The translations under genes and the position numbers were made by a program. Source: Candidatus Peregrinibacteria bacterium (GTDB taxonomy: Bacteria > Patescibacteriota > Gracilibacteria > Peribacterales > Peribacteraceae). Taken from it: a stretch of 45,658 bases of DNA. The stretch covers positions 1-45,658 of the forward strand of contig JACOTD010000075.1 in assembly GCA_016178535.1 (NCBI GenBank). The letters run 5' to 3'. The notes under the pieces are model-generated. The model had not been told where the DNA came from. It saw nothing but the letters and a program-made list of their open reading frames with translations, and did not search any database. Each line of letters starts with the position of its first letter. Within the stretch, counting starts at the first letter, position 1. This document shows positions 25,241 through 44,430 of the stretch, one piece after another.

Positions 25241-25331
25241 TGGCGGTGGGAGAGGGATTCGAACCCTCGAACCCCTTGTGGGGGTTACGCGATTTCGAGT
25301 CGCGCGCCTTCGACCGCTCGGCCATCCCACC
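25241..25331 (-). tRNA. tRNA-Ser (anticodon CGA), CCA encoded
   Basis: GGTGGGATGGCCGAGCGGTCGAAGGCGCGCGACTCGAAATCGCG-long variable arm-GGGTTCGAATCCCTCTCCCACCGCCA. Acceptor stem, CGCGA/TCGCG anticodon stem and T-arm all pair. Confidence 0.9.
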
Positions 25332-41848: not shown

Positions 41849-42895
41849 TCATTGAACTTTCAGATCCACTCCTTCCTCTTCGCAATCCGCTTCCAGCATG
41901 ATCTTCGCGAGCTCCTCGACCGTCGTCTTCGCCTCCCACCCGAGTTCTTTCTTGGCCTTGGAAGCATCGCCGAGCAGGAAGTCGACTTCAGAAGGACGGT
42001 AGTAGTGCGGATCCACCGCGACGATCGTCTTGCCTGTGCGCGCATCGACGTAGATTTCCTCTTTGTTCTTGCCGCGACGATCGAACGGGATGCGCGCATG
42101 ACGCAAGCACATCTCCAGGAATTCCCGCACCGAGGCCGTCCTCCCCGTGGCGAGAACGAAGTCTTGAGGTTTTTCCTGCTGCATCATCTTCCACATGCCC
42201 CAAACGAACTCCGGCGCGTAGCCCCAGTCGCGCCGGGCCTCGAGGTTCCCGAGGTAGAGACACTGCTGCTTGCCCGCGAGGATGCGTGCGAGCGAGAGCG
42301 TGATCTTGCGCGTGACGAAGTTTTCGCCTCTCCGCGGAGATTCGTGGTTGAAGAGGATGCCGTTGACGGCGTAGATCCCGTAGCTCTCGCGGTAGTTGCG
42401 GGTGAGGTAGAACGCGTACGCCTTTGCGCAGCCGTAGGGACTCCGGGGATAGAACGGCGTCGCTTCGTCCTGACGATCCTCCTGCGCAAGTCCGTAGAGC
42501 TCGCTCGAACTTGCCTGGTAGAAACGGGAGGCGACCCCGCTCGTGCGCAGCGCCTCGAGCAGACGCGTGGTCCCCACTCCCGTGATGTCGCCGGTGTACT
42601 CCGGCATGTCGAAGCTGACGCCAACATGACTCTGTGCCGCCAGGTTGTAGATTTCATCGGGCCGGACTGTCTGGAGAACGTGGCCGAGTGAACTCGAGTC
42701 TCCCAAGTCACCGTAGTGGAGGCTGATGGGGAGCCTCGGCGCATTCACGTCGCTGAAGAGGTGATCGATGCGCCCGCGGTTGAAGGTGGACGCCCGCCGC
42801 ACGAGACCGTGCACCTCGTAGCCCTTCTGGAGCAAGAGTTCCGCGAGGTACGAACCGTCTTGACCTGTAATCCCTGTAATCAACGCACGCTTCAT
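41849..42895 (-). CDS. gmd: GDP-mannose 4,6-dehydratase
   Basis: Motifs [60 protein letters not shown]. Confidence 0.92.
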
Positions 42896-42923
42896 AGGAG
42901 AAGAATACAGCAACATGCCGAAT

Positions 42924-43111
42924 TGGTGGAGCGTGGGGGAATCGAACCCCGCTCCGCGGTTCTCAAGACGCGGAGGCCAACCTGGCCACGCCCCATAACT
43001 CGGCTGTACGATCGTACACCATTCTTCTTGACGCTCGCAAGGCTAAGAGGGTATGCTGACAATGGTTCTCAAGACGCGGATGGCCTTCCGGGCCAATCGA
43101 ATTCCCGCCCC
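42924..43111 (-). ncRNA. ssrA: tmRNA-like gene (ssrA), unusually short (~188 nt)
   Basis: 5' GGGGCGGGAAUUCGAU..., 3' ...GGAGCGGGGUUCGAUUCCCCCACGCUCCACCA. The acceptor stem has a G3:U70 pair. UCCGCG/CGCGGA forms a P2-like helix. One frame is open to a UGA at 42963-42965. Confidence 0.6.
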
Positions 43112-43148
43112 CGTAAAGGCGGGTTTTTCGTTGGTGTGTAAAAATAGC

Positions 43149-43154
43149 TACACT
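43149..43154 (+). promoter_or_regulatory. -10-like TACACT, 10 nt upstream of the ATG at 43165
   Basis: GCTACACTATGTTGGCTTATG. Confidence 0.3.
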
Positions 43155-43164
43155 ATGTTGGCTT

Positions 43165-44430
43165 ATGAAAGAGACTATTTGCATCGTCGGGCTGGGTTAC
43201 GTCGGTCTTCCCCTCGCCCATGCGTTCGCCAAGGCGGGATACGAAACACTCGGGTACGACATTGCGGAGAAGCGAATCGGGGAACTGCGCCGGGGACATG
43301 ACCGCACGCGTGAACTCAACGAAAAACAATTGAAGGAAGTGACGATGACCTTCAGTGCCGATTCGGAGATCCTCGAGAGAGCAGACATCATCATCATGGC
43401 TCTCCCCACTCCCGTGGACGCAGAGAACAAGCCGGATCTCTCTCCCGTGGAGAGTGCATCGAAGACGGTGGGGAAACATCTGAAGAAGGGCGCCATCGTC
43501 GTCTACGAATCGACGGTGTATCCGGGCACGACCGAGGAGATCTGCGGACCGATCCTCGAGAAAGAATCCGGGCTTGTCTGCGGCAAGGATTTTTTCCTCG
43601 GCTACTCCCCCGAGCGCATCAACCCCGGGGACAAGGAGCACACGGTGACGAAGATCGTGAAGGTGGTGGCGGGGCAGGACGAGAAAACGACGGACGTCCT
43701 CTGCGAGCTCTATAGCTCCGTGATCACGGCCGGCGTTCACCGCGCCCCGAGCGTCAAAGTGGCCGAGATGGCCAAGGCGATCGAGAACGCCCAGCGCGAC
43801 TTGAACATTGCCTTCATGAACGAAATCGCGCTCCTGAGCAACAAGATCGGCATCAAGACCAAGGACGTGCTCGCGGCGGCGGCGACCAAGTGGAACTTCC
43901 TTCCGTTCAAGCCGGGGCTCGTCGGCGGTCACTGCATCGGCGTTGATCCGTACTATCTGGTGGAGAAGGCCCGGCAACTCGGAATGGAGACGCACGTGAT
44001 CGATGCGGGGCGGCAGATCAACGATCGCATGAGCAAGGAAGTGGCGATGCAGGTGCTCAATGCACTGGATGTGTCTCCGGCTAAAGCCCGGATCCTCGTC
44101 CTGGGGCTCACCTTCAAAGAAAACATTCCCGATACGAGGAACAGCAAATCCATGGACGTGGTTCATCATCTGCAAAGCGCCGGCTGCGCGGTCGAGGTCA
44201 ACGATCCGTACGTGAGCGACGAAGAGCTCAAACGCATGGAGATGACGACGGGAGCATGCGAAGAGAATCGCTACGATGCCGTCGTCTTCCTTGCGCCGCA
44301 CCGGGAATACCTCGCAGATGTTCAGGGGATGATCAACGCCGTGAAGAAGGGTGGAGTCTTCTACGATCTTAAATCGCTCGTCGATAGGGACACAATCGAG
44401 AGGGCGGGGAGAAGGTACGTGGCGCTATGA
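43165..44430 (+). CDS. nucleotide-sugar dehydrogenase (UDP-N-acetyl-hexosamine dehydrogenase, TviB/WecC/Cap5O-like)
   Basis: Motifs ICIVGLGYVGLPLAHAFA, ESTVYPGTTEE, GGHCIGVDPYY. 421 aa. Confidence 0.9.
   Translation: MKETICIVGLGYVGLPLAHAFAKAGYETLGYDIAEKRIGELRRGHDRTRELNEKQLKEVTMTFSADSEILERADIIIMALPTPVDAENKPDLSPVESASKTVGKHLKKGAIVVYESTVYPGTTEEICGPILEKESGLVCGKDFFLGYSPERINPGDKEHTVTKIVKVVAGQDEKTTDVLCELYSSVITAGVHRAPSVKVAEMAKAIENAQRDLNIAFMNEIALLSNKIGIKTKDVLAAAATKWNFLPFKPGLVGGHCIGVDPYYLVEKARQLGMETHVIDAGRQINDRMSKEVAMQVLNALDVSPAKARILVLGLTFKENIPDTRNSKSMDVVHHLQSAGCAVEVNDPYVSDEELKRMEMTTGACEENRYDAVVFLAPHREYLADVQGMINAVKKGGVFYDLKSLVDRDTIERAGRRYVAL

Follow-up and report, generated by a model that had tools for sequence, protein, structure and literature searches.

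Does a short stretch resembling a transfer-messenger RNA (tmRNA) gene, near the end of a Peregrinibacterial contig, encode one miniature tmRNA or more than one RNA? The question is raised by positions 42924-43111 of the window, by which we mean the whole 45,658-nucleotide (nt) stretch of contig JACOTD010000075.1 (assembly GCA_016178535.1, Candidatus Peregrinibacteria bacterium) that was analysed. The initial annotation had read these positions as a single RNA of about 188 nt with a duplicated 17-mer and an unusual tag. We found instead that the locus probably holds two divergently transcribed small RNA genes, a reading to which we give a probability of about 0.68. One, on the minus strand, would encode a 71-nt tmRNA-like, tRNA-like RNA (TLD, for tRNA-like domain). 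The other, on the plus strand, would encode an antisense small RNA that controls the TLD.

Relatives were collected by a scan in which each GTDB species was represented by a single genome and the query was a fixed 27-nt 3' end pattern. The scan gave 11 homologous loci (L003-L013), making 12 for comparison with the window. The source metagenome-assembled genomes are named Candidatus Peribacteria, Peribacteraceae or Peregrinibacteria in nine cases and 'Patescibacteria group' in one, and the last is labelled Gammaproteobacteria. The order of parts was identical in 11/11 homologues. Flanking open reading frames (ORFs) differed, and no protein neighbour conserved across the 12 loci was found. This constant order amid differing flanking genes indicates a conserved, self-contained module of a candidate phyla radiation (CPR) lineage.

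Read 5' to 3' on the minus strand, the module of the window consists of an A-run, a GC hairpin (CCCGCC-UUUACGGG-GGCGGG), AAUUCGAUU, a small hairpin (GGCC-CGGAA-GGCC) and an outer copy of the repeat, copy A (UCCGCGUCUUGAGAACC, 43080-43064). A spacer of about 45 nt, a palindrome (UGUACGAUCGUACA) and a leader (GCCGAGUUAU) follow. The sequence then runs GGGGCGU GGCCAGGUUGGCC UCCGCGUCUUGAGAACC GCGGA GC GGGGUUCGAUUCCCC C ACGCUCC ACCA, followed by AUUCGGC. The duplication reported initially was exact: the 17-mer TCCGCGTCTTGAGAACC occurs twice, at 42958-42974 and 43064-43080 only, and no further match was present in the window at up to 3 mismatches (chance expectation 0.29). It also proved longer than 17 nt, with about 32 nt of the 5' half repeated with few changes. 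A larger direct repeat or att-site remnant was considered and rejected.

Owing to the exact duplication there are two candidate 5' acceptor strands, an outer GGGGCGG and an inner GGGGCGU. Across the 12 loci the inner strand paired with ACGCUCC at 7/7 positions every time, whereas the outer strand reached 5-6/7 and never 7/7. Pair 1 or 2 of the outer strand was broken in 7/12 loci, two loci had A3:U70, and 6/7 pairs formed in the window and four other loci; in all 12 this strand paired with the opposite strand of a terminator hairpin. The acceptor stem with G3:U70 proposed earlier therefore exists in the window for the inner GGGGCGU (42994-42988, 7/7) but not for the outer GGGGCGG (43111-43105), which makes 6/7 pairs with ACGCUCC and a G·A at pair 7. 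The parts of the RNA that begins at the inner strand are as follows.

42924 to 42994, minus strand: 71-nt tmRNA-like, tRNA-like RNA (TLD), identified by ARAGORN, Rfam RF00023, fold z-score and pair counts in the 12 loci
42994-42988 and 42934-42928, minus strand: TLD acceptor strands, with G3:U70
within 42986-42976, minus strand: 3-bp D-like stem
42975-42952, minus strand: 7-bp arm with a 10-nt loop, including copy B of the 17-mer (42974-42958)
42950-42936, minus strand: T-arm
42927-42924, minus strand: encoded ACCA

The 71-nt piece has a cloverleaf-like fold better than its shuffles (z-score -2.19). In an alignment of the 12 sequences this structure was paired in 95.6% of cells, compared with about 52% when the partners were slid. 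Changes on both sides were found at 6/7 pairs of the long arm, where they were compensatory, and at 2/3 pairs of the D-like stem. All 12 loci have an identical acceptor 5' strand, GGGGCGU, which lies outside the search pattern; the invariance of the acceptor 3' strand and the T-arm is uninformative, because both are inside the fixed 27 nt used for the search. The T-loop is UUCGAUU and the discriminator is A73; only four T-stem pairs are invariant, with C·C at the fifth position in the window.

In E-value mode, the Rfam tmRNA model RF00023 matched exactly the 71-nt span with 22.6 bits, below its gathering score of 47, and outscored the tRNA model. It was the best family for the 69-71-nt piece in 9/9 loci tested, at 18-39 bits (18.4-38.9 in 8 homologues), with 322 model positions deleted in every alignment. 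At no locus did the TLD reach the threshold of the tRNA model RF00005 (29 bits), and at gathering thresholds Rfam reported nothing but ordinary tRNAs in the window and the 11 other loci. ARAGORN called no tmRNA in the window or loci, and labelled the 71-nt piece 'tRNA-???', giving it a 4-base anticodon. TLD-type loci are thus missed or miscalled by ARAGORN (tRNA-???, tRNA-Ser) and missed by Rfam at curated thresholds.

These features place the TLD among known RNA types. Its loop of 10 nt in the window (8-10 nt across loci) and the lack of an anticodon loop and of a variable region set it apart from an ordinary tRNA-Ala. It also lacks the message of a canonical tmRNA and has no space for the H2 helix or the pseudoknots PK1-PK4, and its RF00023 score is sub-threshold. 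It does have the tRNA-like domain of tmRNA, with a 7-bp acceptor carrying G3:U70 in 12/12 loci, a T-arm and ACCA. With a size in the range of about 65-90 nt, alanine acceptor features, no anticodon and no tag, it has the properties of a tmRNA-like RNA without a coding sequence (CDS). Two earlier statements were borne out: the element is tmRNA-like at its 3' end (GGAGCGGGGUUCGAUUCCCCCACGCUCCACCA with an encoded CCA, on the minus strand), and it is an alanine-type tRNA-like domain with G3:U70 and encoded CCA and without space for pseudoknots. Judged from the comparative sequence evidence, the 71-nt fold is real and tmRNA-like, without anticodon or message. Its acceptor features suggest that the TLD would be charged with alanine.

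On the opposite strand, the outer copy forms the beginning of a predicted second RNA.

43064 to 43128, plus strand: predicted antisense small RNA of about 65 nt, identified by promoter, terminator, conserved layout and complementarity to the TLD
43064-43080, plus strand: unpaired 5' seed, the reverse complement of copy A and perfect complement of TLD nt 21-37
43082-43094, plus strand: small-RNA hairpin GGCCUUCCGGGCC
43095-43101, plus strand: AAUCGAA, complement of the TLD T-loop
43104-43123 and 43124-43128, plus strand: terminator hairpin and U5, found by a terminator prediction tool

An intrinsic terminator (a GC hairpin followed by U4-8) was present on the plus strand in 12/12 loci; read on the TLD strand, it becomes an A-run and then a hairpin with no U-run after it. 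The predicted plus-strand transcripts are 53-68 nt long, and 12/12 share the layout of seed, hairpin, AUCGAA and terminator. They start with a 12-17-nt unpaired 5' end, followed by a 4-7-bp hairpin, and the seed was unpaired in most of their predicted folds. Inspection of the 12 loci revealed no conserved reading frame or stop codon in the small RNA.

Just past the small-RNA terminator, L004 (4260-4300) and L009 (4090-4130; both coordinates approximate) share an additional, conserved hairpin resembling GGACGTTCCACAGGGGTGTGGAACGTC. In L003 (7709-7785) and L008 (5503-5579), a tRNA-Pro(CGG) gene co-directional with the small RNA follows the terminator after about 60 nt. In the window, the terminator is followed by TTGGTG-17-TATGTT (43133-43167), which ends 5 nt before the ATG of a UDP-glucose/GDP-mannose dehydrogenase-family gene (43165-44430); the dehydrogenase-family mRNA may be leaderless or nearly so, judging from this spacing.

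Are the two RNAs related in function? The small-RNA 5' end is complementary to TLD nt ~7-38, a span that begins on the 3' side of the loop, takes in the 5' strand of the arm and reaches into the D-like stem. In the window the complement is perfect over the 17 nt of the seed and extends, with imperfections, across the D-like stem to a total of about 30 nt; in other loci it covers 25-30 nt with wobbles. The arm sequence varies widely among species, and the small-RNA 5' end follows it in each. Cognate duplexes had energies of -36 to -53 kcal/mol (mean -43.3), compared with a mean of -23.6 for non-cognate pairs, and only 3/132 non-cognate pairs were as good as the worst cognate one. After the cost of unfolding both partners, the net cofold gain was -16.6 kcal/mol for cognate and -2.0 kcal/mol for non-cognate pairs. 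Such compensatory complementarity, together with a predicted promoter and terminator of its own in 12/12 loci, is what characterizes a trans-acting antisense small RNA.

The differences between the two DNA copies were also directional. There were 29 transition differences: 25 of them (C or A in copy A opposite U or G in the TLD) leave the duplex of small RNA and TLD with a G·U or U·G wobble, and 4 would give A·C. This 25:4 asymmetry points to pairing between small RNA and TLD rather than to homogenisation, gene conversion or a shared third strand, since these predict symmetry. Two further complementarities were found. The AUCGAA motif matches the invariant TLD T-loop at 6-7/7 positions in 12/12 loci, with wobble-compatible variants (AAUUGAA, AAUCGGA), and the terminator 5' strand is complementary to TLD nt 1-6 in 10/12 loci. 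From their sequences, these complements to the T-loop and nt 1-6 could be either in use or relics.

The region between the genes carries signals for both.

43028 to 43057, plus strand: small-RNA promoter, predicted by a tool scan, with -35 TTGACG (43028-43033), an 18-nt spacer and -10 TATGCT (43052-43057)
43011 to 43040, minus strand: predicted TLD promoter, with -35 TTGCGA (43040-43035), an 18-nt spacer and -10 TACGAT (43016-43011)
43005 to 43018, either strand: perfect 14-nt palindrome TGTACGATCGTACA, overlapping the predicted TLD -10 and lying 9 nt upstream of the small-RNA -35

The small-RNA promoter of the window ends 6 nt ahead of 43064. Strict sigma-70-type matches ending 5-8 nt before the seed were found in 8/12 loci (0.02 expected from the background rate), for example TTGACA-18-TATAAT in L006 and TTGACT-16-TATAAT in L007, and the remaining four have a weaker TTG...TAnnnT at the same place. 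In the four closest relatives the hexamers are conserved and the spacer between them is not. For the TLD, transcription is predicted to start at ~43004, 7 nt past TACGAT. The arrangement of TTGnnn, 17-18 nt and TACGAT recurs in L007, L010 and L012; elsewhere it is less well matched or hard to make out, and from sequence we therefore assign the TLD promoter with low to moderate confidence. The back-to-back promoters overlap within a region of ~60 bp, their -35 boxes occupying 43028-43033 on the plus strand and 43040-43035 on the minus strand. Nine of the 12 module loci contain the palindrome (TGTACN4GTACA), eight of them as an exact copy and L008 with a single mismatch; no other occurrence was found in the window or among 178 retrieved loci. 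To judge by its form and place, it may be a regulator binding site or operator, and its position over the predicted TLD -10 suggests a further transcriptional coupling. In L006 (7300-7570), about 130 extra nt lie between the small-RNA promoter and the palindrome; the TLD strand of this extra stretch has a frame of 21 codons (AAKKLKNGKKIERKYRDLLAP*).

The TLD precursor appears to be bounded by two strands that pair with each other.

42995 to 43004, minus strand: TLD precursor leader GCCGAGUUAU, with helix strand GCCGAGUU at 43004-42997
42917 to 42923, minus strand: trailer strand AUUCGGC, directly 3' of CCA, which pairs with the leader

Complementarity between trailer and leader directly outside the acceptor stem was found in 11/12 loci, beginning 0-1 nt past CCA, with compensatory variants of leader and trailer (GCCGAG/UUCGGC, GCCGCC/GGCGGC, GCCACCGC/GCGGUGGC and UGCCUU/AAGGCA). 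The exception is L010, where a 1338-bp insertion (L010:4032-5370) immediately after CCA has displaced the trailer. It is flanked by the 9-nt direct repeat GCTCCACCA, and the normal trailer AATTCGGCA resumes beyond it. The insertion has two ORFs on opposite strands, one for a RelB-antitoxin-family protein (100 aa, Pfam E = 1.1e-11) and one of 156 aa without Pfam match. This insertion indicates that the 3' end of the TLD gene serves as an insertion site, as do tRNA and tmRNA genes. Two Logan contigs, L001 and L002 (1-30; runs SRR12113389 and SRR12113411), have the window sequence, and both stop no more than 7 nt from the TLD gene 3' end (42917-42922), which may reflect strain variation or insertions there.

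We also searched for a protein partner and for the module elsewhere. With two SmpB queries, tblastn gave nothing credible in the 45.7-kb window and the 6-8-kb loci, and no SmpB gene lies beside the module at any of the 12 loci. A match in L013 with E = 0.004 was spurious on inspection. A metagenome scan with the pattern GGGGCGTG-N{38,56}-GGGTTCGATTCCC, which the 37-nt gap of the module falls outside, had ordinary tRNAs and no member of the module family among the matches listed. The same pattern on viral contigs returned tRNA-like genes and a few short tmRNA-like sequences, and with the correct 37-nt gap it returned two unrelated phage sequences and no module. The 17-mer had no match in viral contigs and so gave no sign of a phage attP, and BLAST of the 71-mer against phage genomes yielded only marginal T-arm matches to phage tRNAs. 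The short tmRNA-like sequences that came to light in metagenome and viral contigs measure 76-91 nt (L073:3251-3333, L113:806-888, L029:7461-7551 on the minus strand, L158:1483-1558 and L166:1616-1694). They begin with GGGGCGUGA and finish with CUCCACC(A/G), and L073 and L113 have a GGAUUUCGAC D-loop. No repeat of the RNA body (5' half or arm) was seen within 400 nt of any of them; the one repeat near L029, 267 nt upstream, covers just 12 nt of the T-arm.

How do other explanations fare against these data? A single miniature tmRNA of ~188 nt (43111-42924, minus strand), with an outer GGGGCGG acceptor, a PK1-like pseudoknot and a non-canonical tag frame, is very unlikely in our view, even though its outer segment, GGGGCGG followed by GAAUUCGAU, looks like a canonical tmRNA 5' end and forms 6/7 acceptor pairs in five loci. 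Besides the acceptor counts given above, the full-length RNA folds no better than its shuffles (z-score +0.24), and both ARAGORN and the Rfam tmRNA model choose the 71-nt form; RF00023 is the best match to that piece, below its gathering score, and never reaches the outer copy. The crossing pairing of UCUUGA/UCAAGA with ACCAUU/AAUGGU can form in the window, but it is neither conserved nor covarying in homologues; its energy is -5.9 kcal/mol for cognate and non-cognate pairs alike, and the arm UCAAGA corresponds, in reverse complement, to the conserved -35 box. Likewise, the proposed tag frame is open in the window, but it traverses the acceptor strand and its stop, in the arm loop, is kept in only 3/12 loci, and the 12 loci share no conserved reading frame or stop codon in the stretch from copy A to the arm. 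The A-run and hairpin ahead of such an RNA would have no role on the minus strand. The helix UCCGCG/CGCGGA is present in the sequence. The two 17-mer copies had been taken as alternative partners of CGCGGA within one RNA; the better reading is that the outer copy, reverse-complemented, forms the 5' terminus of another RNA, antisense to the inner copy. The 17-mer thus matters, as was supposed, but a role as tag end and stop is not supported. An outer copy without function, left by a decaying tandem duplication or att site and flanked by promoter and terminator signals through coincidence, is harder still to credit. Integration at the 3' end of the gene does occur, as the 1338-bp insertion with its GCTCCACCA repeat demonstrates, and the two Logan contigs break at the same end. 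Integrases copy the 3' end, whereas here the 5' half is duplicated. The layout is constant in 12 diverged species while the sequence between the copies varies freely, the copies change together, with a wobble bias in one direction, and promoter and terminator are found in 12/12 loci.

The remaining explanations accept two RNAs and assign them other tasks. The duplex of small RNA and TLD could itself be the active form, a split, two-piece form descended from tmRNA, in which a 17-30-bp helix replaces H2 and which performs tag-free rescue with SmpB; we regard this as unlikely. Two-piece, base-paired tmRNAs exist in alpha- and beta-proteobacteria and cyanobacteria. The co-variation shows that pairing is selected, the acceptor/T-arm minihelix can survive an invasion of the arm and D-like stem alone, and the small RNA keeps complements to the T-loop (6-7/7 in 12/12 loci) and to TLD nt 1-6. 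Yet the small RNA has no conserved frame or stop, pairing over the full length, nt 1-6 and T-loop included, would not create a tRNA-like shape but break up the acceptor stem, and no SmpB gene is near any of the 12 loci. We see little chance that the plus-strand RNA is a leader or attenuator of the downstream gene (here the UDP-sugar dehydrogenase at 43165) that senses the TLD by base pairing, loosely as a T-box senses its tRNA, with its terminator opening or closing in response. The next gene past the terminator is co-directional in 9/12 loci, and the terminator 5' strand could meet TLD nt 1-6 in the 10 loci noted above. The downstream genes are unrelated, however (UDP-sugar dehydrogenase, tRNA-Pro, MsrA-like, SOD-like and LepA-like), the neighbour is convergent in 3/12 loci, and the distance to the next gene is up to 360-520 nt. 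There is also no conserved complement to the NCCA end, and the dehydrogenase of the window has promoter-like hexamers of its own past the terminator. Equally improbable is a 71-nt RNA that is no tmRNA relic but serves solely to carry alanine for a purpose outside the ribosome, such as cell-wall cross-bridges or lipid aminoacylation, with the small RNA as its regulator. Alanyl-tRNA synthetase requires only G3:U70 and no anticodon, envelope sugar-nucleotide genes are abundant in the window and some loci, and a T-stem with only 4 conserved pairs is unusual for an RNA that binds EF-Tu. Against this, the tmRNA model of Rfam outscores its tRNA model at each locus tested, the gene neighbourhoods differ between loci, and inspection of the flanking ORFs only noted no Fem/MurM-type or aaPGS-type gene beside the module.

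Several points weigh against the preferred reading of a TLD controlled by an antisense small RNA. Fold energies of the two strands of the small-RNA region, a weakly informative measure, favour the sense strand in 8/12 loci, by a mean of -0.9 kcal/mol. The transcript ends of both RNAs are predictions, and a clear TLD promoter is seen in just four of the loci. The resemblance of the outer copy, read on the TLD strand, to a canonical tmRNA 5' end (GGGGCGG-GAAUUCGAU) has to be explained by assuming a relic. The sample consists of 12 sequences from one lineage, all fetched with the fixed 27-nt 3' pattern, and the wobble counts are phylogenetically non-independent, so we attach no formal probability to them. 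Because the copies are paralogues, part of the cognate similarity may reflect homogenisation, although the wobble asymmetry argues otherwise.

The two RNAs can be compared with several known systems. Tag-less tmRNA-like RNAs include the jakobid mitochondrial tmRNA (RF02544), plastid forms of ~65 nt and a mini-tmRNA of mycobacteriophage DS6A that inhibits the host tmRNA (PMC11915505). The tmRNA database (2025) lists three 'Standard NoCDS' instances from Patescibacteria, which might be such loci, and '9FT-COMBO-53-11 sp001772805' may lack a tag frame (PMC11915505). Like the CDS-less forms, the TLD consists of the tRNA-like domain only, at ~65-90 nt, with G3:U70, a T-arm and an encoded or added CCA; it has no anticodon, tag frame or pseudoknots, and by covariance model it is nearer to tmRNA than to tRNA. 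It differs from them in its setting, a free-living-type CPR genome of ~60% GC rather than an organelle or phage, in its 3-bp D-like stem and 7-bp arm with a 10-nt loop, and in being always adjoined by a co-evolving antisense small RNA gene. In the searchable literature, we found no description of an antisense partner for any tmRNA-like RNA, or of such a pair of RNAs; what comes nearest is the statement on '9FT-COMBO-53-11 sp001772805'.

With canonical ssrA (RF00023) the TLD shares the ends (5' GGGGCGU and 3' GGGGUUCGAUUCCCCCACGCUCCACCA), the alanine identity elements and a 3' end used for insertion, as in L010. It is 71 nt long, however, and not 300-400 nt; it has no H2, PK1-4, resume codon or tag, and it scores 18-39 bits against a threshold of 47. 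The module resembles two-piece tmRNAs (RF01849-51, RF04321) in that two RNAs are possibly base-paired beside a tRNA-like domain. In contrast to these, its RNAs come from opposite strands with separate promoters rather than from one processed precursor, the TLD holds both acceptor strands, and no piece is coding, so that the module does not belong to this class; on the TLD, RF04321 matched only 15 nt of the T-loop (10.9 bits, E = 7). Antisense and sponge systems such as ColE1 RNA I/RNA II, R1 CopA/CopT and RyeA/SdsR also have a small, terminator-ended RNA, pairing that is nucleated at a loop and then extended into a duplex, and adjacent genes for regulator and target. Here, the target is a tRNA-like, presumably aminoacylatable RNA rather than a primer, mRNA or regulator. 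Moreover, the gene of the antisense RNA does not lie opposite its target but is a paralogous copy next to it, and the complementarity must therefore be kept by co-evolution. On these comparisons of sequence, the module is best described as a conserved small RNA gene pair in Peribacteria, made up of a tag-less tmRNA-like RNA and a partner of which we found no earlier description.

The annotation of proteins around the module deserves mention as well. A 141-aa ORF (42716-43141, plus strand) spans the whole RNA module and is antisense to the start of a GDP-mannose dehydratase gene; it has no match in Pfam and is unlikely to be a genuine gene. In homologues, the T-arm is repeatedly translated in open frames (…GSIPPRST…), which could be mistaken for genes. 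The sole other RNA gene detected in the window is a tRNA-Ser(CGA) with a long variable arm (25241-25331, minus strand; 58.7 bits with the Rfam tRNA model).

How might an antisense small RNA control the TLD? Both folds, the promoter and terminator signals and the co-variation of the two RNAs can be read from the aligned loci, and we infer from them that both RNAs are expressed and that their pairing has a consequence. In the mechanism that we propose, the TLD would be made with a short leader and trailer paired to each other. The free 5' end of the small RNA would dock on the exposed 10-nt TLD loop as on a toehold. Since the small RNA includes the CGCGGA of the arm's own 3' strand, it could displace that strand and go on to open up the D-like stem. 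The tRNA-like body would thereby unfold, while the acceptor/T minihelix may persist. The outcome could be control over the amount of TLD usable by protein partners or the ribosome, or a TLD marked for a double-strand RNase. As to origin, we speculate that the outer copy was the 5' end of a standard ssrA gene, now transcribed backwards, and that a duplicated 5' half beside the 3' end made the compact TLD gene. Such a relic would explain why GAAUUCGAU is tmRNA-like.

Few conserved regulatory pairs of small RNAs have been proposed for CPR bacteria, and this module would be among them. For annotation, it means that spurious ORFs are read across the module, as with the 141-aa frame and the T-arm frames of homologues. 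Message-less tmRNA forms are known mainly from organelles, one phage and a few database entries. A lineage with a tag-less form in every sampled species, together with a co-evolving partner, would thus offer a natural system in which to study the function and control of tag-less tmRNA. It is possible, though doubtful, that Peribacteria have replaced the canonical tmRNA with a two-RNA system, in which a co-evolving small RNA gates a message-less alanyl-tRNA-like RNA or joins it in a split rescue RNA. Nearly all bacteria have a tmRNA, and its architecture varies very little. If true, such a two-RNA replacement would be a new form of the near-universal ribosome-rescue RNA, the first to have a partner RNA acting in trans.

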